Source: an uncultured Chloroflexia bacterium
GTDB lineage: Bacteria; Chloroflexota; Limnocylindria; QHBO01
Assembly (NCBI GenBank): GCA_963827475.1
Contig: CAWHAZ010000005.1
Coordinates: 736,001-800,000 of the forward strand
Length of the DNA stretch: 64,000 bases
Reading direction: 5' to 3'
Positions 9,213 to 45,615 of the stretch are shown here, one piece after another (within the stretch, counting starts at the first letter, position 1; each line of letters opens with the position of its first letter). The position numbers were made by a program, and so were the translations under genes. The notes under the pieces were generated by a model. The model did no database searches. It was not told where the DNA came from and saw only the letters and a list, made by a program, of their open reading frames with translations.

Positions 9213-10775
9213 TCAGGCCCCGACTTCGGGCGGCTGGGGAGCGGCCGGCAGGTCGACCTCGACCGCCAGCCCGCCGAGCTCGCTCGGTAGCGCGCGCACG
9301 TCGCCGCCCATGGCCTCGACGAGGCCACGGACGACCGCCAGCCCCGTTCCGGTGCCCGTTCGTGCTCCGCCCGCGGGCGTTCCAGCCCGGTAGAACTTCT
9401 CGAACAGGTGGGGGAGCGCGTCTGCGGCAACGCCGGGGCCGCTGTCCTCGACGCGGATGCGGACCACCCCGTCCACCGGAGCTGCCCCGATCCGGATGCG
9501 ACCACCCGCTGGGACGAAGGCCGCGGCGTTGTCGAGCAGGTTGGCCAGGACCTGTCCCAGGAACACGGGATCGGCATACACCGGGGGCAGGTCATCCGGC
9601 CAGTCGTAGGCGAGCTGGCGACCGGTGAGACTGCTTCGGTATCGGTCCACCGCGCTGGTCACCGCCTCGTCAATGGCCAGGACCTCGCGATCCGCCCGCA
9701 GCGACCCGCCCTCGATCCGACCCAGATCGAGAAGGTTGGTCACCATCCGATTCAGGTGATCCGCCTCGCGGTCGATGGCCTCGGCGCTGGCCAGGCGATC
9801 CGCCTCCGGCACCGCTTCGGGCCCTTCGAGGATGGTCCCGGCGGCCGCGCGGATGGTGGCCAGCGGTGTCCGCAGATCGTGCGACACCGACTCGAGGAGG
9901 GCGGTCTTGGCCGCGTCACTCCGGCGCGCGACCTCCGCCGTCCGCGCTTCCGCGGCAAGCCGGTCCTGTTCGTAGGCCTGGCCGATCTGGTCGGCGGCGG
10001 CCGCGAGCAGGCGGGTCGCGCTCCGCCCCGGCTCACCGTCGTGCCGCGCGCGGACGGCCCAGATCGATCCCAAGCTCTCGCCGGCCGCCTCGATCACGAC
10101 GCGATACGCGCGCTGGTCCTGCTCCGTCGGCCTCGGGCCGGCCGGCGGATGGACCTGGATCCATCGCGCAGGCGTGTCTCCCGGCATGCGCCGCAGGACG
10201 ACGTGATCGACCGATGCGTCGGGCACGGCTCCCAGACCACCCGTATCGGTCACCACCCGCTCCCTGCCGCTCGGCCGAGCGAGCGCGACGAGGACCCGTT
10301 CCAGATCCGCCTCGGCCCGCACCGTGCCGGCGAGGTCTGCGAGCACGGTCGCCGTATCGGGCCGCGTCGCGAGTGTCCGGCTGATCCGGAACAGTGCCGT
10401 CGCTTCGTGCTCGCGCTCGATGGCCGCCTGGGCTCGGCTCCGCTGGGCGGCGGCCAGCTGTCCCACCGCGATCCCCAGGACGAGCAAGAGGATCAGGTTG
10501 AGCAACTCCCCCGGGTCGGAAACGGCCAGGGTGAAGTTCGGGTGGACGAAGAGGAAGTTGTAGAGCAGAAACGCGCCGATGGCGGTCGCGATCGCCGGCC
10601 ACACGCCGAGGTACACCGCGCTGGCCAGCACGGCGAGCAGGTACGTGGACGACGCATCGGGCACGCCGACCCCCCGCTCGAGGATCGCGACCAGCACCGA
10701 TGTCGCGGCCAGAAGCAGCGCGACCCCGATCGCGGCCCTGACCGCCGGGACCACCCAGGATCCCCGGATTGCCAC
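9213..10775 (-). CDS. KdpD-like sensor histidine kinase (DUF4118 membrane domain, GAF-like region, HisKA/HATPase; lacks N-terminal KdpD/Usp domains)
   Basis: 'YNFLFVHPNFTL' TM region, 'SVSHDLRTPLA', 'NLLDNA', 'DSGPG', 'GTGLA'; GTG at 10775 preceded by TACCAT. Confidence 0.87.
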   Translation of the reverse strand: MAIRGSWVVPAVRAAIGVALLLAATSVLVAILERGVGVPDASSTYLLAVLASAVYLGVWPAIATAIGAFLLYNFLFVHPNFTLAVSDPGELLNLILLLVLGIAVGQLAAAQRSRAQAAIEREHEATALFRISRTLATRPDTATVLADLAGTVRAEADLERVLVALARPSGRERVVTDTGGLGAVPDASVDHVVLRRMPGDTPARWIQVHPPAGPRPTEQDQRAYRVVIEAAGESLGSIWAVRARHDGEPGRSATRLLAAAADQIGQAYEQDRLAAEARTAEVARRSDAAKTALLESVSHDLRTPLATIRAAAGTILEGPEAVPEADRLASAEAIDREADHLNRMVTNLLDLGRIEGGSLRADREVLAIDEAVTSAVDRYRSSLTGRQLAYDWPDDLPPVYADPVFLGQVLANLLDNAAAFVPAGGRIRIGAAPVDGVVRIRVEDSGPGVAADALPHLFEKFYRAGTPAGGARTGTGTGLAVVRGLVEAMGGDVRALPSELGGLAVEVDLPAAPQPPEVGA

Positions 10776-10851
10776 GCGAGCATGGTAGGCGGCGCCGGGG
10801 ACTCGATCCGGCGGCTTCTCGTGGCGCCCGTGGCATACTGGCCCGACTCGA

Positions 10852-10929
<78 letters not shown>

Positions 10930-10947
10930 TCAATCTGAGCACGAAAT

Positions 10948-10977
10948 GGCCCCTCTCGGCCCGACGCCGGAGGGGCC
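10948..10977 (+). terminator. Hairpin after tRNA-Pro
   Basis: GGCCCCT...AGGGGCC inverted repeat followed by TCTCGTT. Confidence 0.55.
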
Positions 10978-11011
10978 TCTCGTTGGGCCTGTAACGGCCA
11001 GGATGCGCTCA

Positions 11012-11051
11012 CGACCTCTCGAAGAGCCTAGGAAGCCCAGGTGGGCGTCGA
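11012..11051 (+). repeat. Island repeat copy R1 (diverged)
   Basis: CGACCTCTCGAAGAGCCTAGGAAGCCCAGGTGGGCGTCG. Confidence 0.75.
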
Positions 11052-11120
11052 GATCTGACGCATACTGCGCCGCGTGGAGCGGGAGCTCCCCAGCGGAGCC
11101 CTTCGGAGGACGGAGCGACC

Positions 11121-11693
11121 ATGACGGCAATCGGACTACCTCGGACCGCAGCCGAGCGGACTCTCGGGCTCCAATGGGTTCTCGCAGTCGTGATCGGCTG
11201 GGTCATCGGTTTCTTCGTGTGCGAATGGCTCGAAGAGTTCCTGTCCACAGCCTTCGTTGATGGGCTGGTCATTGGCACCGCCGTGGGCATCGCCCAGGGA
11301 CTCGTCCTTCGGAAGGGGATCGCTCCCGTCCTCCCTTGGGTGGCGCTTAGCATCGTGGGCTTCGCGATCGGGAAGCTCGTGAGCGATCTCGTCGGCCAGG
11401 CCATGCCGGAGCCGCTCGGAGTGGTCCTGGGAGGGGCCGTGATCGGTCTGTCGGCGGGAATGGCCCAGTGGCTGATCCTGAGGCGCCGATTCCCCCAGGC
11501 GGGGTGGTGGATCGGGGCCAATGTACTGGGCTGGGCCGCAGGCTGGAGCCTGATCACCGCTGCGGAGGGTTCCGATGTCTCCGTCGCGATGATCTATGCG
11601 CTAGGAGCAGCGGGCGCTGCGCTGGTCGGAATCGTCACAGGCATCGCCCTCATTGGCTTGGTACGCGAGCCGATTGCCACTCCCGAGCGGTGA
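11121..11693 (+). CDS. Multi-pass membrane protein (hypothetical)
   Basis: About 6 hydrophobic helices with repeated 'G.AQ.L.LR' motif. Confidence 0.75.
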   Translation: MTAIGLPRTAAERTLGLQWVLAVVIGWVIGFFVCEWLEEFLSTAFVDGLVIGTAVGIAQGLVLRKGIAPVLPWVALSIVGFAIGKLVSDLVGQAMPEPLGVVLGGAVIGLSAGMAQWLILRRRFPQAGWWIGANVLGWAAGWSLITAAEGSDVSVAMIYALGAAGAALVGIVTGIALIGLVREPIATPER

Positions 11694-11694
11694 T

Positions 11695-11741
11695 CGCCTC
11701 TCGGGGAGCCTAGGGAACCGAGGTAAGCGTCGGGAGCCGGC
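11695..11741 (+). repeat. Island repeat copy R2
   Basis: CGCCTCTCGGGGAGCCTAGGGAACCGAGGTAAGCGTCGGGAGCCGGC, starting 1 nt after the stop of the preceding gene. Confidence 0.85.
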
Positions 11742-11779
11742 TGTAATACCCATGTTCAGGCCACCCGGACACCCCTAGA

Positions 11780-13104
11780 GTGGCCGACGTGCCACACGAG
11801 GAAATCTCAATTCGGCATCGGTTGGGCACGTGGGTCCACCAGCACCAGCGGGCTGGCGGAATCGGCCTCACGCTGGCGGCCTTCGCCCTTCTCGGCATCG
11901 CGGTTCTCATTGGCTGGGCGATCGTGACTGGGTCGCCGCCGCCATCCGCAAGCGTCGGCCCTTTGAGCACTCCAGAACAACCGTCATCGGTCGAGCCAAC
12001 GCAAGCTGCGACAGCCACCCCGAGCCTATCCCTAAGCCCTGCCCCGGCCGCCGGATGGACGCCGGTCGTAATCCCTGGAATCGCCTACCTGAACAGCATC
12101 GCCGAGCACGATGGCCGGCTGCTCGCCGCCGGCTTCAGCGCGGGCGTCAGCGCCGGCGTCGGGTCCTTGGCCACCAGCGACGATGGCGTGACCTGGACAT
12201 CGGTGCTGGACCCCGGGTACCAGTTCTTCTCCGTGGCAGCTGGCGAGCCGGGCTTCATCTCCGTGGCAACGCGGTACGCGGTGCCGATGGGAATGCCGGA
12301 ACACGCGTACCTGTACTCCGATGACGGCCGTACGTGGCATGAGGCAGTTCCACCCGCGGAATGCTTCGCAGGGTCGATTGAGCCTTACGAGGGGGGGTTC
12401 ATCGGGCTCGGTGGAGAGTGCCGGGCCGAGGGAGATTTTCGGCCGAGCGCGCTCCATATGATCGGCTCGCCAGACGGCCGCTCTTGGACGTCGCAGATCA
12501 ACGACCAGATGCTCGCGGACTCGTGGGCCACCGATGGCCGCCGATTAGTGCTCTTCCAACACGACCGGAGTGGCCAGGCACCCCCCGAGATCTGGATCAG
12601 CGACGACGCGGCACAGAACTGGCGCAATGTGCCAGGTGCCCTTCCGGCCGGCGTTCACGTGGGCTGCTGTGAGTATGGGCACGGGCAGTTTCTAGCACCG
12701 GGAGGCTGGCTGAGGCGCGAAGGCGATCCAGATCCCGCGGTCTGCGTCTCCGCCGATGGGGAGCGTTGGAGTTGCGAGGTCATCCCACCGCTCAGCGGCG
12801 AACTGGCTGGCCGTGGCTATCTGGGGCGCGCAATCGCGGTCACGCCGACGGGTTATGCGTCGCTGGTGGAGTACACCAAGAATCCGTTCCCCCGTACGAC
12901 TTTTCGACTGACATGGTCAGCGCGAGCTCGCGGGACGGGCTCCACTGGAGTTTCGAATTGGTGCCGGAGCTCGCCAACAAGCTGCCGACCGGTCTCGTGT
13001 GGACCAGCTACGGCCTCTTTGCCTGGGGCGGGACCGTCCCGAACGTGCAGATCGGGGACCTTTCGGAACCGTACATCGACGTGCAGCGGGCTCCGCTGCC
13101 GTGA
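11780..13104 (+). CDS. Membrane-anchored extracellular BNR/Asp-box (beta-propeller-like) protein; frameshift near 12890
   Basis: N-terminal TM plus Pro/Ser/Thr linker; repeated S.DG..W motifs (SDDGVTW, SDDGRTW, SPDGRSW, SADGERW, SRDGLHW). Confidence 0.75.
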
Positions 13105-13220
13105 CCTTCGTTGCGCGGGCGAATGGGTCGAGCTTGACAGTGGCGCAAGGCCCATGGCAACCCCCGGGTCGCTCCATACCCCCATAACGTAGGTTCGCCC
13201 CGGCGGAGCTCCCGGCGGTT

Positions 13221-13268
13221 CGACCTCTCGGGGAGCTGCAGGAACCGAGGTGGGCGTCGGGAGCCGGC
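13221..13268 (+). repeat. Island repeat copy R3
   Basis: 48 nt, identical to R5. Confidence 0.92.
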
Positions 13269-13444
13269 TAATCCGGCGGTGCTGCGTCGCACCACATTTC
13301 CCACTAGGCGCAGTCTGATCGGGTTTCGGCCTGTCATAGTGACTGGGTCCGGCATCGACGAGATGCGTCGGCAACCCTTGGAATGGGGGGCGTGCATTCG
13401 TCGGATGGCGGCGATTCGAAGGGCTCAGGCGCTGGAGGAAGTCC

Positions 13445-14173
13445 ATGAAGCGCCTCTCCATAATCGTCGCGGTCGCCGCGATGGCAGCGTTGATCTCGGC
13501 TCCGGTCGCTGCCGCAAAGCCGTTCCAGAATGTCTTCATCTCGAATGCGGCCGCCCTTGTCGCTTCGATCGCCCCCAACGATGGCCGGAATACGCAGCTA
13601 CTCATCCTTGGCAGCGACTATCGTGAGGTTTCTGGCGGGGTAAATGGATCCGGCGGAAGCTTCGCCCAGAGCTTCGCCTTTGTGGATGGCATCCAGCGGT
13701 ATTGCGACGCTGCGTCCAACGACCTAATCACTCGCAACATCAATGGCTTGAATCTCGAGGTCGGAGCAGCTGGTGTCACAGTCCATCGACTCGGGAATTC
13801 TGGTCGGATCCAGGCCGTCTTGGCTGACGTTCTAGTCTCTGAATTCCATCTCCATTATCCGGAGCCTGGCTGCACCGGCCTCGACCCCGTGCTCACATTT
13901 GAGTTCGGGACGGCGACGATCACCCTCGACGTCACCTTCAGCTCAACGGCCCCGACCAGTCCAGCACCGCCACTCACGCTGACCCTTCCATACAAACCGG
14001 GTCTGGGGGTTGACGTCAGCATCAGCAGTCAATTGCAGGCGCCAGCTGTGCTATCCGGAACAGTTCACGCGACCGATCCAGATTGGGACATCGGTGACGT
14101 CAGCTCGGTCCCGGCGTCACAGTGCTTCATCGCAAAGAGCAGCAACCTCGCAATAACCGTGCGGACACCTTAG
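13445..14173 (+). CDS. Secreted hypothetical protein
   Basis: GGAGG RBS; signal peptide 'MKRLSIIVAVAAMAALISAPVAAA'; atypical codon usage. Confidence 0.75.
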   Translation: MKRLSIIVAVAAMAALISAPVAAAKPFQNVFISNAAALVASIAPNDGRNTQLLILGSDYREVSGGVNGSGGSFAQSFAFVDGIQRYCDAASNDLITRNINGLNLEVGAAGVTVHRLGNSGRIQAVLADVLVSEFHLHYPEPGCTGLDPVLTFEFGTATITLDVTFSSTAPTSPAPPLTLTLPYKPGLGVDVSISSQLQAPAVLSGTVHATDPDWDIGDVSSVPASQCFIAKSSNLAITVRTP

Positions 14174-14223
14174 CGGCGCTCCCAGAAACCTGAGACCGCG
14201 CCCAGACACCGATTGACGGTCTC

Positions 14224-14272
14224 CGACGGCTGAAACGAGCCAGTAGCCGAGGCGGGCGTCGGGAGCCGGCTA
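14224..14272 (+). repeat. Island repeat copy R4 (right half conserved)
   Basis: CGAC...CCGAGGCGGGCGTCGGGAGCCGGCTA; the final CTA is the stop of the minus-strand gene. Confidence 0.78.
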
Positions 14273-14612
14273 CGGCTCCGTTGGAGCGGCGTCTGTCATG
14301 CGACCCGCCGTGTCGTGGTCGCAGACTCGGCATTCGTAGACACCCTTGGACTTGCTCCACCATTGGCCGAACAGTACGGAGCCGCAGTTGGTGCAGACCG
14401 GCTGTGGACCGCTCCGCTGAGTGGCCGCAACGGTCCTTCCCAGCCCGACCACGAGAAGGACGCCCATCCCCGCCATCCACAACATGATCGGTAGGAGGAC
14501 TCCGATGTACCTCGCCGCCCGACCTCGGGTCGCTATAGATCTGGACAACCCAGAGACCCATCACGAGGGTCAGGATGCCGACGGCGGCCAGCCAACGGGC
14601 GAGAGTATTCAC
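14270..14612 (-). CDS. Small membrane protein with C-terminal zinc ribbon; probable frameshift near 14550
   Basis: TAGGCT-6nt-GTG start at 14612, two TM helices, CTNC...CRVC. Confidence 0.6.
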
Positions 14613-14672
14613 GGCGACAGCCTAATACGACATGGGGCGCGAATATGCGCCCCGGCTCATGCGGTCAGCCTG

Positions 14673-14720
14673 CGACCTCTCGGGGAGCTGCAGGAACCGA
14701 GGTGGGCGTCGGGAGCCGGC
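14673..14720 (+). repeat. Island repeat copy R5
   Basis: 48 nt, identical to R3. Confidence 0.92.
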
Positions 14721-14754
14721 CTAGCCCGATTGCGACAGGCCAAACACTTACGGG

Positions 14755-15114
14755 CTAGCTGATGTCCCAGATCACGGCGCCGACGAGCGGTCGCAAGACC
14801 GAGAAGCTGTACTGTGCCCCGATCGGCAGGTCCATGAATGCCGTCGCCTCGCGATTGAGCCTGCCCCAGTCGCTATCAGGGTCCCTTGCCGCCTCCTCCA
14901 TCGCGTCGAAGGTGGCCATCGAATCGAAGCGCCACAGCAGCCGGTATTCGCCGGCCTTCTTCTCGGAGCTGAAATACACGATATAGGTTCCGAGGTACTC
15001 GACCCCTGGAGGACTGACTTCCTTGGTGAGCCGGTCGGTCTCTTCGGTCCACTTTTGGAACGCCTCTTCTTGACCGCGCTTGACGTTGAACCCTTGCTCG
15101 ACGATCAGTGACAC
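14755..15114 (-). CDS. Hypothetical protein (possible dimeric alpha+beta barrel/NIPSNAP-like fold)
   Basis: GAAGGAG RBS; 'FNVKRGQEEAF..W', 'RFDSMATFDA'. Confidence 0.65.
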   Translation of the reverse strand: MSLIVEQGFNVKRGQEEAFQKWTEETDRLTKEVSPPGVEYLGTYIVYFSSEKKAGEYRLLWRFDSMATFDAMEEAARDPDSDWGRLNREATAFMDLPIGAQYSFSVLRPLVGAVIWDIS

Positions 15115-15179
15115 CTCAAGACTCCTTCAGGTGCGGGATTGCTGGTGGCGTCGATCTTAGGTCTGGGTACCATCCCGGG

Positions 15180-15419
15180 GTGTCAGGACTCACCATCGCA
15201 CCGCTTGGCTGGGCTCAGGGCGACGACGCCCGGTGGCATCGGATCTACGCCGTATCCGGCTTCCTGAAGAGCGGCGATCTGTGGGTCGCCAACTGCTCCT
15301 CCAGCGTCACGCCGTCCGAGTCCGCCCTCCTCGAGGAGGTCCCGACCGGTGGCGTCGGCCCGAGCTGCCGGGCGGCGGACAACGAGGTCGCGCTGGCGAT
15401 CGACCATCTGCTCCTGTGA
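15180..15419 (+). CDS. Small hypothetical protein
   Basis: TACCAT-6nt-GTG leaderless-type start, about 79 aa. Confidence 0.45.
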   Translation: MSGLTIAPLGWAQGDDARWHRIYAVSGFLKSGDLWVANCSSSVTPSESALLEEVPTGGVGPSCRAADNEVALAIDHLLL

Positions 15420-15427
15420 GGTAGGTA

Positions 15428-15712
15428 ATGGACTACATGGAGAGCATGCCCACCGAGATCCCACGGGACCGGGTGCTCGTCCACAACAACGTCAAGCCCA
15501 CCCGGCACCTGGGCGCTCGTGGGTTCCGGGCATGGTTCCAGGCATCGGTGGCCAGGTTGGAGCCGTGCCCTTGCGACTGGTCCGGCCTCAGGCACTACCG
15601 GGTCACGCCGCAGCGAGCCGTAGGGCCATCGGTACACTCCAACCGATGTCCCGGCCTCCCGCCTCCGAGCCGCGCTGCCTCCGCTGCGACATTGCCACTG
15701 ACCGTCCTGTAA
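15428..15712 (+). CDS. Small hypothetical protein with His/Cys motif
   Basis: GAGGT RBS; 'VLVHNNV...GFRAW...CPCDW...HYR'. Confidence 0.55.
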   Translation: MDYMESMPTEIPRDRVLVHNNVKPTRHLGARGFRAWFQASVARLEPCPCDWSGLRHYRVTPQRAVGPSVHSNRCPGLPPPSRAASAATLPLTVL

Positions 15713-15812
15713 CCCTTTCTGTAGCCCTTAGCGCGTGGTTTTGGGGGCTACGGATACTCGCCCCTGGACGGTTTGCACGCTCAAATCGAACCGCCCGAGC
15801 GTGGCTGCGCGA

Positions 15813-15861
15813 GAATGGGGTTCAAGAGGTCGCTGGTTCGAATCCAGTCGCCCCGACCATC
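15813..15861 (+). repeat. att-like duplicate of tRNA-Pro 3' half
   Basis: Identical to 10883-10931. Confidence 0.95.
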
Positions 15862-16000
15862 TTTGTGGCCAAGGGTAGGACCCTTCCCAAGGCGATCCTG
15901 CGGGTGTAGCGTTCAGACGGCGCATGCCCAGCGCCGAGGGCAGACAGGCTCGGTGGGGCGACCTTCACGTGTCCGAAGCCACCGCTGAATCGAGTTCCTC

Positions 16001-16282
16001 ATGCTTGGCCGAGTACGCTGCCCCGGTAGTCAGACCCCTCGGCACACGCGTGCCCGGGCCCTGGGGAGAAAGGGGAGGGACACGCCTCTCACGATTGTCA
16101 ATCGGACCAAGACGGTCCGATGGGTTGGCACGCGCCAGGCCCACGCCTATCCCATGGGCAAGGACTACATCGGCTCTCGGTCATTGTGTGGCCGGGAGGA
16201 GCTCATCGAGGGCCTCCGAGTGTCGATGGACAGTGGGAATCCCAGGTGCGCCGACTGCCAATGGCTACTCGCAAGAGTGTGA
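16001..16282 (+). CDS. Small zinc-finger-like protein, paralog 1 (start uncertain)
   Basis: 'VRWVGTRQAHAYP...SLCG...CADC'. Confidence 0.6.
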   Translation: MLGRVRCPGSQTPRHTRARALGRKGRDTPLTIVNRTKTVRWVGTRQAHAYPMGKDYIGSRSLCGREELIEGLRVSMDSGNPRCADCQWLLARV

Positions 16283-16480
16283 CTTGACCCCGAGGCCCGG
16301 AGCTTGCCCCTCCGGGCCTTGTGGTTTCCGGCCCCAGCGCCGCTGCTCGGTGGTGCGATCTTTACGTTTGCGAAGCCACGCCTGAATCGAGTTCCCCCAT
16401 GCTTCGCCGGGTACGCTGCCCGAACAGATCTGGCCCCTCGGCAGACGCGTACCTGCGCCGAGGGGTCTTTCCGACCCAAG

Positions 16481-16691
16481 GTGGACGAAACGCCTCTCAC
16501 GATTCTCCATCGGACCAGGACGGTCCGATGGGTTGGCACCCGCCAATCCCACGCCTATCCCATGATCAAGAACTACATCGGCTCCCGTTCGTTGTGTGGT
16601 CGGGCGGAGCTCATCGAGGGCCTCCGAGTGTCCATGGACAGTGGAAATCCCGAAGTGCCCCGAATGCGAATGGCTGCACGCAAGAAAGTGA
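16481..16691 (+). CDS. Small zinc-finger-like protein, paralog 2; +1 indel near 16650
   Basis: 'VRWVGTRQSHAYP...SLCG...NP' then 'KCPECEWLHARK*' in the next frame. Confidence 0.6.
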
Positions 16692-16701
16692 CGACGACCA
16701 G

Positions 16702-16908
16702 GTGAACCGAATCCGACTTCTCCGCCGCTCCCGGGTCCGCTGGCTTGGCGTCCGCCAGGCCCACGCCTATCCCATGACCAGGGATCTCATTGACTCCAAG
16801 TCGCTGTGCGGCGCAGAAGAGCTCCTGCTCGGGGTTCGCGCCTCACGGGATAGTCGCTATCCCAAGTGCCCCCAGTGCGAGTGGCTGGACGGCCAGAGCG
16901 CCGCGTAA
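16702..16908 (+). CDS. Small zinc-finger-like protein, paralog 3
   Basis: 'VRWLGVRQAHAYP...SLCG...CPQC'. Confidence 0.65.
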   Translation: MNRIRLLRRSRVRWLGVRQAHAYPMTRDLIDSKSLCGAEELLLGVRASRDSRYPKCPQCEWLDGQSAA

Positions 16909-16969
16909 CCCCCACGAGCGCCCACCTGCACGCTGACATCGGGGTCCCGAGCGTGGTCTAGACTGACGC

Positions 16970-17005
16970 GGTTCAGGAGGTCGCTGGCTCGAACCAGTCG
17001 TGACC
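16970..17005 (+). repeat. Degenerate second copy of tRNA-Pro 3' end (older att scar)
   Basis: GGTTCAGGAGGTCGCTGGCTCGAA-CCAGTCG vs tRNA GGTTCAAGAGGTCGCTGGTTCGAATCCAGTCG (2 mismatches, 1 gap). Confidence 0.75.
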
Positions 17006-17019
17006 GTCCGACGGGGGCC

Positions 17020-17397
17020 GTGAGGAGGTATGGCATGGGATTTCTCGTCGCCGTCCTGGTCAACACGGCAGCCCTGTGGGTGGCCGTGTATCTGCTCCCC
17101 GGGCTCGAGTTCCAGGGCGAGTGGTACCAGTGGCTCATCCTCGGCCTGATCTTCGGGGTGGTGAACGCCATCGTGAAGCCGATCCTGAAGCTCCTCACCT
17201 TCCCGATCACGATGGTCACCCTCGGGCTGTTCCTGCTCGTCCTCAACGCGCTGATGCTGTACCTCACCAGCGCCCTGGCCGGACCGATCCTGTCGGCGTT
17301 CACGATCAGCAGCTTCGTGGACGCGCTCCTGGGCGCGATCATCATCGCGGTGGTCGGGATGGTCCTCCACGCCGGCGCGCGGCGGATGGGCGTCTAG
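17020..17397 (+). CDS. 4-TM 'phage holin family'/YvlD-like membrane protein
   Basis: 'GVVNAIVKPILKLLTFPI...TLGLF.LVLNALML'. Confidence 0.88.
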   Translation: MRRYGMGFLVAVLVNTAALWVAVYLLPGLEFQGEWYQWLILGLIFGVVNAIVKPILKLLTFPITMVTLGLFLLVLNALMLYLTSALAGPILSAFTISSFVDALLGAIIIAVVGMVLHAGARRMGV

Positions 17398-17439
17398 CCG
17401 CCCGTTCGCGGCCGCTCTGCCCGTCCCGCGACTCCACGC

Positions 17440-18096
17440 GTGCGCACGCCGCCCCGGGTCGCCTGGCTCTTCGCGCTGTGGGTCGGCGTCCTGACCCTGC
17501 TCACCGGTCCGCTGCTGCTGATCAACCCGCTGTTCATCGGCTGGCTGCAGGACCGCCATGACGTGGCCGACGGGCTGCACCTGCCCCAGGACGAGCTCGA
17601 CCGAATCAACGGCGAGATCGTGTGGGACATCTTCTCCGGCGGCGACTTCGACGTGACGTTCGACAACGGCGACCCGGTCCTCGACGCCGATGAGCGATCG
17701 CACATGGGCGATGTCAGCCGCCTGGTCCGCATCCTCGTCATCCTCGATGCGGTGGCCATCGCCTTCGCCGCCTGGGGCGGGAGGCTGCTGCGGACCGATC
17801 CCCACCGCCTGGGACGAATGCTCATCGCGGGCGCGGGCACGGTCGGCGTGGCGACGGTGGTGATCGGCGTCCTCGCGGTCGTGGCGTGGGACAGCGTCTT
17901 CACCCTGTTCCACGAGCTGCTGTTCCCGCCCGGGACGTGGTCGTTCCCGCCGGACTCGACGATGATCCTGCTCTATCCGCCTGACTTCTGGTTCGAGGCG
18001 GCCATGATCGCCGCGGTCCTGGTCCTCGCCACGTCGGCGACGCTTTCGTACGGCGGATGGCTGCGCCTGCGCGAGGCGGACGAGGCGGCCGCGTGA
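17440..18096 (+). CDS. DUF1461 (TIGR01906-like) membrane protein
   Basis: 'ERSHMGDV', 'FTLFHELLF...W.F...MI.LYP..FW'. Confidence 0.82.
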   Translation: MRTPPRVAWLFALWVGVLTLLTGPLLLINPLFIGWLQDRHDVADGLHLPQDELDRINGEIVWDIFSGGDFDVTFDNGDPVLDADERSHMGDVSRLVRILVILDAVAIAFAAWGGRLLRTDPHRLGRMLIAGAGTVGVATVVIGVLAVVAWDSVFTLFHELLFPPGTWSFPPDSTMILLYPPDFWFEAAMIAAVLVLATSATLSYGGWLRLREADEAAA

Positions 18097-44055: not shown

Positions 44056-45615
44056 ATGCGCCGCCTGAGCGCGGCGGCCGCGCTGCTCCTGGCGGCCCTC
44101 ACCCTCATCCTCGTCACCGTTCCCGCCGTCCAGCCCGCGGCCGCCGGCGATCGTCCCCTGCGCTACCTGGCCGGTCCGGCCGGGACGCTGGACCCCGCGT
44201 TCATCTCGAGCGCCAGCGATGTGCAGCTGCTCCTCCAGCTGTACGCCGGCCTGACCAGGATCGCGGAAGACGGGTCGGTCTATGCCTCCCTGGCGGAGGA
44301 CTGGGCGGTGAGCGACGAGGGCCGGACCTACACCTTCCGCCTCCGGGACAGCCTCGCGTTCAGCGACGGCTCGCCGCTCACCGCGGAAGACGTTCGCCGC
44401 TCGTGGCTCCGCGTGCTGGATCCGGCTACCGGGGCGCTGGCCCCCGACGTCCTCACCGTCATCGAGGGCGCGGGCGCCTGGCGATCAGGAGCCGGATCGG
44501 CGGAGGACGTGGGGATCGAGGCACCGGACGAGCGGACCCTCGTCGTCCGTCTCGAGCATGCCGCCAGCCACTTCCCGGCGCTCGCCGCCACGCCCACGGC
44601 CTTCGTCGTGCCGTCGGCGGCGGACGCGTCGTCCGACTGGCAGACGGTGGACGGCTTCGTCGGCTCCGGCCCGTACGCCGTGGAGCGGCTCGACGGGCTG
44701 GACCTCGTCCTCGCGGCCAATCCGGAATACGTGGCCGGTCCGCCGCCGATCGACGAGATCGTGTGGGTGTCCGAGGTCGAAACCAGCGCCCCCGAGGCGT
44801 TCGTCGCCGAGCAGGTGGACCTCGTCAACGTCTTCTCGGGCGATGCGTCGTGGATCCGCTACGACCGCGCGCTCGGACCGTTCCTCCACGAGGCCGCATC
44901 CCTGAGCGTGCAGTACTTCGGATTCGACACGACCCGGCCGCCCTTCGACGATCCGCGGGTGCGGCGGGCGTTCGCCCTCGCCCTCGACCGACCTCGCCTG
45001 GTCGAGCTGTCATCCGGCGCGGCCGCCACCGCGGCCACCAGCCTCGTTCCGCCGGCCCTGTGGCCCGACGGGGCGCCGACCGACGAGGATGCGGATCCGG
45101 ATGCGGCCCGCGACCTGCTGGTCGAGGCCGGGTACGCCTCCGGCGCGGAGCTGGGGACGATCACGGTCAATGCCAACGGCCTGGACGTCGGGCCGGCGGC
45201 CGAGGTGTGGCGCGAGGAGCTCGGGGTCGACATCGCCATCGAGTCCATGGAGTTCGGGGACTATCTCAGCCTCCTGCCACAGCGTCCGCCACCGATCTTC
45301 ACGATCAACTGGATCACGGACTACCCGTCGCCGTACGCGCTGTACGGCCTCCTCCTGCTCCCGGACGCGGCATCGAACTACGGGCACTGGACCGATGACG
45401 AGTTCGTCGAGCTGATGGAAACGGCCGCGCGGACGACGGACCCGGCGGAGCAGCGCGAGGCGTATCTCGCGGTCGAGGACCGGGTCGACGCCGAGGCGCC
45501 GGTGATCACCTGGTCGTGGGACGCATCGCACTGGCTCGTCCGCGACGGGCTGAACGGGGTCGGCACCCTCACCGTCGGGCTGCTCGACTTCGGGAGGGTG
45601 TCGTGGGCCGACTGA
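44056..45615 (+). CDS. Peptide ABC transporter substrate-binding protein (family 5)
   Basis: Signal peptide; 'LDPA', 'LAE.W.VS..G.TYTF.LR...FSDG.PLTA.D', 'GSGPY', 'PFDD.RVRRA'. Confidence 0.9.
   Translation: MRRLSAAAALLLAALTLILVTVPAVQPAAAGDRPLRYLAGPAGTLDPAFISSASDVQLLLQLYAGLTRIAEDGSVYASLAEDWAVSDEGRTYTFRLRDSLAFSDGSPLTAEDVRRSWLRVLDPATGALAPDVLTVIEGAGAWRSGAGSAEDVGIEAPDERTLVVRLEHAASHFPALAATPTAFVVPSAADASSDWQTVDGFVGSGPYAVERLDGLDLVLAANPEYVAGPPPIDEIVWVSEVETSAPEAFVAEQVDLVNVFSGDASWIRYDRALGPFLHEAASLSVQYFGFDTTRPPFDDPRVRRAFALALDRPRLVELSSGAAATAATSLVPPALWPDGAPTDEDADPDAARDLLVEAGYASGAELGTITVNANGLDVGPAAEVWREELGVDIAIESMEFGDYLSLLPQRPPPIFTINWITDYPSPYALYGLLLLPDAASNYGHWTDDEFVELMETAARTTDPAEQREAYLAVEDRVDAEAPVITWSWDASHWLVRDGLNGVGTLTVGLLDFGRVSWAD

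Follow-up and report, generated by a model that had tools for sequence, protein, structure and literature searches.

What is the role of a short repeat that recurs five times on one strand of a bacterial chromosome, with one gene between each copy and the next? This question is raised by a stretch of 64,000 nt (hereafter, the window) from the genome of an uncultured Chloroflexia bacterium, in which five copies of a repeat of about 48 nt lie beside a tRNA-Pro(GGG) gene. The original prediction, made from the letters of the window alone, proposed that the repeat is a recombination site through which gene cassettes have accumulated at the tRNA. Here, we report that the repeat belongs to a hairpin that is real, specific to one lineage and supported by covariation, and that marks portable gene units; the mechanism that moves these units is unproven. 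Our favoured reading, which we hold tentatively and with somewhat less than even confidence, is that the hairpin is the DNA-level joining or recombination site of a cassette pool that is not an integron.

The repeats of the window

A repeat search of the window returned one family of five same-strand 48-nt repeats, R1 to R5, which start at 11012, 11694, 13221, 14223 and 14673 and thus follow each other at steps of 682, 1527, 1002 and 450 nt. Compared with the 13221 copy (100%), identity is 73% at 11012, 81% at 11694, 65% at 14223 and again 100% at 14673. When a 28-nt piece of the repeat was searched with up to three mismatches, it matched the window four times and 100 shuffles not at all, R1 being too eroded to pass this search. 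The five repeats are real and far above chance. Neither the 28-nt piece nor the covariance model described below found a further convincing copy in the window, and a model match at 44432-44507 (E=0.28) was treated as noise.

Most of what had been predicted for these copies was borne out. The five repeats share one orientation beside tRNA-Pro(GGG), which ARAGORN also reports; R3 and R5 are identical over 48 nt, R1 and R4 are the more eroded copies, and no other full copy lies in the window. Translation gives one open reading frame (ORF) between each successive pair of repeats, four in all and in either orientation, and the minus-strand ORF at 14270-14548 has its stop codon at the last base of R4, as claimed. 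Two details need correction. R2 differs from R3 at nine of 48 positions when the two are compared in register, rather than at about seven, and the repeated unit is longer than the 48 bp proposed for it. In fact, as copies elsewhere in the genome and in its relatives reveal, the 48-mer makes up the 3′ two-thirds of an imperfect hairpin of 65-70 nt. The stop codon of gene 1 ends at 11693, directly before R2, so the claim that R2 begins after a stop codon holds for the 48-mer; it does not hold for the full unit, since at 65-70 nt the 5′ arm in this copy reaches into the last codons of gene 1.

All five hairpins lie on the plus strand. The best preserved, H3 (13208..13272), is full length, has the centre CTGCAG and scores 83.3 bits with the model; it folds at -16.2 kcal/mol on the sense strand versus -11.5 kcal/mol on the antisense strand. 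H2 (11679..11745) is also full length, although diverged, and its 5′ arm is the one that overlaps the end of gene 1 (45.4 bits). H5 (14665..14724) shares the identical 48 nt with H3 and lacks the outer 5′ arm (54.6 bits), as does the eroded H1 (11001..11063), which has the centre CCTAGG (21.8 bits, E=0.14). Finally, H4 (14219..14274) retains the 3′ half only, with three mismatches in 28 nt (18.1 bits, E=0.75).

A covarying, strand-asymmetric hairpin

The hairpin has an outer stem of roughly 14 bp in which one A is bulged; above this come an asymmetric internal loop, an inner stem of 8 bp, an internal loop of 3x3 and a variable tip. Its consensus, whether taken from 13 or from 24 copies, begins with ...CCGGACTCCCGG and ends with ...GGGAGCCGGC. 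Among 13 full-length copies, 88.6% of the cells of the alignment form pairs, and seven of the 20 pairs change on both sides, versus 2.9±1.1 in shuffled alignments; none of 500 shuffles reached this number, and slid controls gave at most four. An alignment of 44 copies fitted to the model tells the same, with 12 of 17 pairs changing on both sides versus 5.0±1.2 (again 0 of 500 shuffles, and at most six in slid controls). This covariation supports both stems of the hairpin. RNAalifold did not recover the structure from a mixed set that included truncated copies.

The two strands are not equivalent. Two positions of the stem are occupied by G-U or U-G in 32 and 33 of the 44 copies, and full pairing is therefore possible on the sense strand only. 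The sense strand also has the more stable fold in 11 of 12 copies. The tip, in turn, is usually a perfect palindrome of 6-10 nt whose sequence changes from copy to copy (CCGCGG, CTGCAG, CCTAGG or a longer one). In the central 22 nt, 40 of the 51 copies whose centre could be located by the anchor have a perfect palindrome of 6 nt or more, versus 35% of random genome windows, an excess that is only suggestive because the copies are related. Possible causes of the tip palindrome are correction by template switching, an easier extrusion of cruciforms, and loop-loop pairing.

The two ends of the hairpin behave differently. The 3′ arm hardly varies and has a sharp end, while the 5′ arm is often absent, with cut points that vary among copies. 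The 5′ boundary is fuzzy and runs on into modules that are common to subsets of copies. In addition, nested fragments occur, with a 5′ half beside a 3′ half in two genomes (G002 and G014) and a 5′ half alone in a third (G085). A truncation mechanism of the retroelement type was considered as the source of the cut copies and set aside, as no reverse transcriptase (RT) was found. No run of T follows the repeat, and a search of 10000-18000 against Rfam (E<=1) matched only tRNA, with no family for the repeat. We also considered a promoter for an extracytoplasmic function (ECF) sigma factor inside the repeat; by our reading, the spacing of 9 nt between GGAAC and CGTC is too short for the consensus.

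One of the subset modules lies directly upstream of H3, at 13171..13207 on the plus strand. It looks promoter-like, as a TANNNT motif is followed by a GC-rich run. Its homology to three copies of the second array of the same genome (see below) begins at 13171-13181. The module also occurs without a hairpin in that second array (locus L001, contig 5, at 13617-13644, 13772-13799 and 15797-15836), where two such modules flank tRNA-Ser(GCT) and one stands 42 nt before the start of an alpha/beta-hydrolase gene. Over 8-11 nt only, it resembles the acceptor end of tRNA-Pro, which might hint at a tRNA-derived origin, and it has no Rfam match.

Distribution of the hairpin

The genome that holds the window (G000; 1.92 Mb in seven contigs, 70% GC, 90% complete) is, like all the genomes considered here, a metagenome-assembled genome (MAG). 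It contains 12 copies of the hairpin, of which five are in the window, one lies between RseP and the NusA region, and six form a second array. The latter copies are on the minus strand and surround tRNA-Ser(GCT) where the same contig ends. With the covariance model, the element was found in 14 of 18 genomes of the genus, which include the unpublished G016, with one to nine matches each at E<=0.05, and in two of 55 sampled genomes from other genera of the family. Thus, the hundreds of dispersed copies that mark repeats of the repetitive extragenic palindromic (REP) kind or MITEs (miniature transposable elements with inverted repeats) were not seen. A simpler 24-mer pattern matched 11 of 61 genomes, and its reversed control none.

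Outside this sample, a 19-mer was searched in genomes of named species. Of its 112 matches, 80 were listed, and 12 of those listed hold the hairpin according to the model; all 12 loci are in records of Limnocylindria or ‘uncultured Chloroflexia’. The other matches listed, in Streptomyces and others, are chance occurrences of a GC-rich word. Moreover, 13 metagenome contigs hold the hairpin, several of them as arrays of two to four copies, and viral contigs gave no hairpin match. The hairpin is always intergenic and, as a rule, found in clusters on one strand, at steps of 0.4-2.4 kb, with one to three small genes of no known family among the copies. The element is thus confined to one genus-level lineage with Limnocylindria MAG relatives, with occasional exchange beyond it. 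We found no relevant literature on such a repeat in Limnocylindria, in a search that did not cover supplements.

Direct arrays and portable units

For the statistics on arrays, we used 63 model matches, namely 43 of the 44 genome matches (the noise match was dropped) and all 20 from metagenome contigs. Adjacent hairpins at most 3 kb apart are on the same strand in 29 of 29 pairs, at spacings of 91-2437 nt. The 29 intervals hold one ORF in 16 cases, two in six, three in three and none in four. Of these 37 ORFs, 24 are sense and 13 antisense to the hairpins. More than half of the hairpins (36 of 58) lie after the stop codon of a gene on their own strand, with a median distance of 47 nt, and 22 of 58 have a gene of the opposite strand on their 5′ side; 25 of 60 are followed by the start of a gene on their own strand, with a median distance of 56 nt. 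Neighbouring copies within one array differ in tip type. A replication-strand bias was set aside as the source of the uniform orientation, given that contig 2 of G015 has + - + + copies within 100 kb. In the second array of the window's genome, a tandem duplication has left paralogous cyclase genes and paralogous genes of 128 and 133 aa.

Several gene families recur beside hairpins at unrelated loci. A lipoprotein-like family of about 180 aa (family A) does so at five loci and in one metagenome array; the others are a family of Zn-ribbon membrane proteins that includes gene 4 of the window, a 96-aa membrane family, and pairs of ECF sigma and anti-sigma factors. At five loci, hairpins have an ECF sigma gene no more than 3.5 kb away, and in two genomes an ECF sigma gene followed by one for a Kelch-repeat protein stands beside hairpin arrays (L001 7975-9740 and L048 7704-8815).

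The limits of such units can be seen where related copies stand in different surroundings. For instance, a family-A lipoprotein gene and the hairpin downstream of it are homologous in G008, G002 and metagenome contig L196, in three different neighbourhoods. Between G002 and L196, homology starts directly after the last bases of the upstream hairpin, spans the 5′ untranslated region (UTR) and the ORF, and stops at the 3′ end of the downstream hairpin; G008 has the ORF and downstream hairpin in common with both. Another unit, found in G007 and at locus L194 with 95% amino acid identity, shares the 3′ part of the hairpin, and its tips and 5′ arms differ. Tip and 5′ arm therefore appear to go with the upstream unit, which places the junction between the tip and the 3′ end. 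Two G002 contigs offer a related observation, since L049 (560-624) and L050 (21-85) share 20 nt and the hairpin and diverge exactly at the hairpin's 3′ end, through either an assembly fork at the repeat or two alleles of the population.

Comparison with more distant DNA points to transfer. A 443-nt piece of the window (15168-15610) is 88% identical to a gene pair between hairpins in G013, versus about 74% in the flanking core DNA. In G085, which belongs to another genus and of which two core proteins are 39% and 62% identical to those of the window's genome, a hairpin adjoins genes that are 78% and 91% identical in nucleotides to genes of the window's genus. The latter figure comes from 598 nt of a gene for about 205 aa (L064 6773-7370 in G085 and L048 4613-5210 in G002); as the RseP proteins are only about 62% identical, it suggests recent transfer. 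The prediction that the repeat bounds portable gene units is thus upheld by the uniform strand of adjacent pairs, by a unit of ORF plus hairpin in three neighbourhoods, and by sharing across genera.

Some of the sites occupied are conserved in position and variable in content. The interval between RseP and NusA (899912-901511 on contig 5 of the window's genome) is hypervariable and ranges from 0.49 kb in G017 to 7.2 kb in G007. Its gene sets differ, with a 621-aa gene in three genomes (proS is our guess), a Zn-ribbon gene in four, and others, and it carries hairpins or partial copies in G000, G002, G007, G009, G012 and, weakly, G014. A site downstream of GroEL holds hairpin units in G008 and G014. 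Arrays are therefore not tied to the tRNA locus, as the original prediction had them, since they are also found downstream of RseP and GroEL. A non-exhaustive look for an orthologous intergenic site that differs by the hairpin alone found none.

The insert at tRNA-Pro and its genes

How, then, did the array of the window come to lie beside a tRNA? The tRNA-Pro(GGG) gene is at 10853..10929 on the plus strand (ARAGORN; 63 bits with the Rfam tRNA model). The last 47 nt of this gene and 2 nt beyond it (10883-10931, plus strand) form the left copy of a 49-nt direct repeat, for which 751813-751861 matches query positions 104-152 at 100%. The right copy, at 15813..15861 on the plus strand, is perfect and ends an insert of 4.9 kb; a third, degenerate copy is at 16970-16993. 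From 10.8 to 17.2 kb, GC content drops from 0.70-0.76 to 0.59-0.68.

We compared the 12 relatives that have tRNA-Pro and a downstream 218-aa gene on one contig. The two genes are 6.5 kb apart in the window's genome, versus 434-484 nt in seven relatives (G004, G006, G008, G013, G015, G016 and G017) and 0.9-2.0 kb in the other five. The segment 10930-15861 is absent from all 12; the larger gaps share nothing with the interior of the insert, except for 149 nt beside the right repeat in G010, and none of them holds a hairpin. Being bounded by a perfect 49-nt direct repeat and absent from the relatives, the segment probably arrived as one block, and the array of the window was probably delivered as part of a 4.9-kb element integrated at the 3′ end of tRNA-Pro(GGG). 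Stepwise accretion at the tRNA, as originally proposed, does not fit a segment that looks like a single insert. No integrase is left inside the 4.9 kb, and the island has no PF00589 match.

Gene 1 (11121..11693, plus strand) encodes 190 aa with five hydrophobic segments, and a soil-type metagenome run contains pieces of it that are about 97% identical and flanked by hairpins on either side. Gene 2 (11780..13104, plus strand) encodes a transmembrane (TM) anchor and Asp-box-like SxDGxxW repeats and is frameshifted near 12.88-12.92 kb. There, the N-terminal frame becomes Arg/Cys-rich junk, and the C-terminal part continues in the frame of ORF 12766-13104, which carries another SxDGxxW repeat and ends at 13104; gene 2 is either a pseudogene or the victim of an assembly indel. 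Gene 3 (13445..14173, plus strand) encodes 242 aa with an N-terminus resembling a signal peptide. Gene 4 (14270..14548) is on the minus strand, antisense to the hairpins, and encodes a TM segment and two CxxC motifs; its relatives adjoin hairpins at two other loci, and a metagenome run holds a contig piece 98.5% identical to it. Gene 5 (14755..15114, minus strand) encodes 119 aa. It is followed by two small plus-strand genes at 15108..15712, for 103 and 94 aa, which have homologues between two hairpins at an unrelated locus of G013. Nine proteins of the island and the family-A protein have no match in Pfam, PHROG or NCBIfam.

In public runs, pieces of genes 1, 4 and 5 occur at 95-99% identity, summed depth is higher on the repeats, and there are short-sided joints between repeat copies. 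These data are four runs, each with at most 0.06 of the sampled words and all in the form of contigs, which cannot show transcription, circles or habitat.

The neighbourhood of the insert has features of its own. At 10934-10980, after tRNA-Pro, there is a terminator of the type native to this lineage, in which a GAGCACGAAA lead is followed by a perfect GC-rich hairpin. The same type is found after RseP in G006, G007, G009 and G002 and is unlike the repeat studied here. A second insert, of 1.1 kb (15862-16993), separates the second tRNA-Pro fragment from the third. It is made up of three tandem repeats of about 400 nt that are 88% identical over 174 nt, each encoding a small protein that ends in ...AHAYPM...SLCG...CxxCxWL and has no family match.

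Candidate enzymes

The original prediction placed the recombinase elsewhere in the genome, which we did not find apart from genes of the XerC and XerD kind. The window's genome has two PF00589 genes, for which the best-scoring models are XerC (304 bits) and XerD (319 bits), with each score falling slightly short of the equivalog cut-off; the XerD-like gene exceeds the cut-off of a generic tyrosine-recombinase subfamily. The two genes sit beside topA and an NAD kinase gene. On the model of the integron integrase IntI they reach 121-125 bits, versus a cut-off of 265. None of 61 family genomes exceeded the cut-off for this integrase (TIGR02249), a weak negative because the control rang in none of 14 control genomes. 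There is likewise no match to PF01797 in the window's genome. Among the relatives, G010 has a third, partial PF00589 match 6 kb from its array, and G006 has seven such matches.

We also looked for the chromosomal site on which XerC and XerD act. No canonical AT-rich dif was found in the 1.92 Mb of the window's genome with a relaxed dif pattern, and the dif of this genome may be either unassembled or unusual in the lineage.

Weighing the explanations

In the reading that we favour, a unit would consist of a short 5′ UTR, one to three ORFs and the hairpin at its 3′ end. Units of this kind would pass between members of one Limnocylindria-like genus, now and then also outside it, and would line up head-to-tail at hypervariable sites downstream of conserved genes, with the hairpin as the joining site at which they are gained, lost and reshuffled. 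The crossover would fall between the tip and the invariant 3′ end, so that the 5′ arm and tip would travel with the upstream gene, as attC does with its ORF. The enzyme might be the host XerC-/XerD-like recombinases, an enzyme acting in trans from an element outside these assemblies, or an unrecognised protein; both this enzyme and the reaction itself are inferred. What leads us to an attC-like joining site is how the hairpin is built, that its two strands differ, that it closes units at their 3′ end, that its orientation is uniform within arrays and independent of genes, that tips are mixed within arrays and that units are shared across genera. Observed as such are the structure and its strand asymmetry, the range in which the element occurs, the one orientation of neighbouring copies, the limits of the units and their transfer.

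Several points weigh against this reading. We found no dedicated recombinase, and the XerC- and XerD-like genes stand alone in the window's genome, in which no resolvase, Y1 or Y2 transposase, rve, TnpB or RT was found (for Y2, the control gave no match anywhere); G013, G015 and G008 have two PF00589 matches each and no more. No circular or excised form and no empty-site allele was seen, and the public runs gave contigs only, at small shares. The interval between RseP and NusA lacks a hairpin in six of the 12 genomes examined, and the site downstream of GroEL holds unrelated genes and no hairpin in the window's genome, so these loci vary independently of the hairpin. The truncation points of partial copies vary, and one truncation, in G012, looks to us more like a microhomology deletion than a site-specific event. 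For 70% GC the fold energies are unremarkable, with sense-strand z-scores from -3.06 to +0.61 and one of 12 below -2. As for the data themselves, the 13-copy alignment was picked for full length, the 44-copy alignment was fitted to the model, and the ORFs come from our own crude GC3-based picker, which is an approximation. Lastly, as the 3′ half is nearly invariant, RecA-type crossovers within it would give the same unit boundaries.

This last point is the core of the strongest rival, which we consider rather unlikely, if well worth keeping in view: a REP-like structural hairpin (an mRNA 3′ stabiliser, an insulator or a weak bidirectional terminator) is inherited with each gene and shuffled passively, with RecA crossovers in the invariant 3′ half of about 30 nt, following transformation or involving paralogous loci, moving units, keeping them in direct orientation and homogenising that half. 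It explains both the near-invariance of the 3′ half and the lack of a dedicated recombinase, and it sits well with the frequent position of hairpins just after a same-strand stop, with the co-inheritance of a gene and its downstream hairpin, and with the tandem duplication in the second array. However, the orientation of a hairpin follows its neighbour hairpins (29 of 29 pairs) and not the genes, given that 13 of 37 ORFs are antisense; the repeat has no T-run, whereas ordinary terminators of the lineage, after tRNA-Pro and RseP, have the GAGCACGAAA lead and a perfect GC hairpin; mixed tip types in one array argue against simple local homogenisation; and 64 nt is short for frequent exchange by RecA. 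Covariation with conserved G-U pairs on one strand would also suit an RNA element read from the sense strand, be it a 5′ leader or small RNA transcribed from the promoter-like module or a 3′ UTR structure with a specific partner (protein or RNA), in which the palindromic tip could give loop-loop pairing between copies. The position of 25 of 60 hairpins before a gene start on their own strand, with a median distance of 56 nt, is in keeping with this, as is the TANNNT-like motif, which is found about 10-20 nt upstream in a subset of copies and also, hairpin-less, before a gene. We nevertheless judge an RNA element improbable, since Rfam has no match, the 5′ arm is often lost while the 3′ arm stays, the orientation is independent of flanking genes, and the element is limited to variable, transferred DNA.

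Still more doubtful, in our judgement very much so, is a miniature non-autonomous element of the MITE kind or that of palindrome-associated transposable elements (PATE), or the leftover end of a larger one, that inserts itself and has genes beside it only incidentally. A long imperfect palindrome with complementary terminal arms and a sharp 3′ end looks the part, and the nested fragments in G002, G014 and G085 speak for it. Against it, the ends of full copies show no target duplication by eye, the fuzzy 5′ boundary continues into modules shared by subsets, no transposase of the searched families was found, copies do not exceed 12 per genome, and the non-exhaustive look found no orthologous site that differs by the hairpin only. 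The original prediction had itself offered one alternative, namely that a mobile-element gene leaves the tip of its 3′ coding sequence (RPLGELQEPRWASGAG*) at every insertion, and that this tip is the repeat. Indeed, the frame is open in R3 and R5, with a stop just after the repeat, but single-base indels fall in mid-frame among the copies, so that the peptide is not conserved; the changes compensate for pairing and not for coding; and in R2 the stop codon of another gene lies inside the unit. We reject this alternative as hardly credible.

If the favoured reading of a joining site is correct, its meaning would extend beyond this locus. To our knowledge, integrons are the sole well-understood system that moves single genes as cassettes through a folded DNA site. 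They are reported to be scarce or lacking in several large phyla and in genomes of small size (PMC4889954). Here, streamlined soil Chloroflexota of about 2 Mb with almost no mobile-element enzymes nevertheless have in common a pool of small hairpin-tagged genes for secreted, membrane and signalling functions, which form direct arrays at several hot spots and are exchanged between genera. A true recombination site would make this a new cassette system, possibly run by housekeeping Xer proteins, and would allow direct tests of gene flow in an uncultured soil lineage that is abundant. One may go further and suppose a second, independent integron principle in Chloroflexota, with its own kind of folded single-strand hairpin site on the cassettes, their insertion and excision by XerC/XerD or an unrecognised recombinase family, and no IntI, attI or AAC/GTT core, although we regard this stronger claim as unlikely, more so than the REP-like rival. 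Were the hairpin merely a structural repeat, it would still be a clean marker of the flexible genome of its lineage and a warning that patterns resembling CALIN, in which attC sites cluster with no integron integrase, can arise without integrons.

Comparison with known systems

Some comparisons are quickly made. [quoted passage not shown] Intrinsic terminators differ in that the repeat has no T-run and is not tied to gene direction, and in that the lineage's own terminator motif is another. A MITE would have terminal inverted repeats, a target duplication and sites that differ by the element alone; the termini of the repeat are complementary, and a non-exhaustive look, by eye for the flanks of full copies, showed neither a duplication nor such a site. 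In Neisseria, short dRS3 repeats and minimal mobile elements punctuate variable cassettes that are exchanged by transformation and recombination. The likeness is that conserved repeats mark variable intergenic or whole-gene cassettes between conserved genes, and the difference is that the Neisseria repeats are of about 20 bp and are not long covarying hairpins.

Systems that borrow the host's recombinases come closer in one respect. The CTX phage offers a folded single strand as Xer substrate, and dif modules have inversely oriented flanking sites and are found on plasmids. Xer-dependent modules such as the Acinetobacter dif modules, and integrative mobile elements exploiting Xer (IMEX) such as the CTX phage, are described as having short sites, relying on host XerC/XerD and carrying no recombinase of their own. 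The likeness is that XerC-/XerD-like genes are the sole site-specific recombinases found in the window's genome. In contrast to dif modules, the repeat has no AT-rich dif-like core, and its sites are direct and chromosomal. Compared with dif itself, which has two 11-bp arms and a 6-bp centre, the arms beside the hairpin centre are mismatched in the 3x3 loop; the host dif was not located.

REP sequences, according to PMC8266576, are palindromes of 20-50 nt with a conserved GTAG ahead of them, present in hundreds of copies, arranged in inverse pairs as bacterial interspersed mosaic elements (BIMEs) and associated with a Y1 transposase (RAYT, or TnpA-REP). Like REPs and BIMEs as outlined there, the hairpins are GC-rich imperfect palindromes that are intergenic, often just after genes, and lineage-specific (PMC8266576). 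Unlike REPs, they are 65-70 nt long and have GTAG upstream of some copies only, at varying distance; no genome holds more than 12 copies, the 29 adjacent pairs are all direct, and the window's genome has no PF01797.

Of the known systems, integron cassettes and CALIN come closest to the pattern seen here. According to PMC5027507, attC sites carry R boxes of the form RYYYAAC/GTTRRRY with an AAC cleavage triplet, G:T mispairs favour one strand, three unpaired features are present, and the recombined strand is the bottom one. The hairpin has no RYYYAAC/GTTRRRY and no AAC or GTT at its base on either strand, as had been noted for the repeat from the start. Moreover, its favoured strand is sense to most ORFs, whereas attC recombines the bottom strand (PMC5027507). 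Other differences from integrons are that no IntI was found in the window's genome or the 61 family genomes (with the weak control), a third of the ORFs here are antisense, many copies are truncated at the 5′ end, and each genome has several small arrays at unrelated loci rather than one platform of attI and the cassette promoter Pc. A CALIN is defined, in PMC4889954, by at least two attC sites on one strand within 4 kb and no nearby intI. The five same-strand copies within 3.7 kb, with no PF00589 nearby, resemble this in arrangement; the sites of a CALIN must also score with the attC model. Nevertheless, the likenesses are several: as in integrons and CALIN, structured sites form same-strand arrays with one or few small, unfamiliar genes between them; as in attC, the repeat has a bulged base, an asymmetric unpaired spacer, a variable tip and a strand favoured by G:T pairs, a likeness of form and not of homology; and, as with attC, the site stands at the 3′ end of its unit and travels with the upstream ORF.

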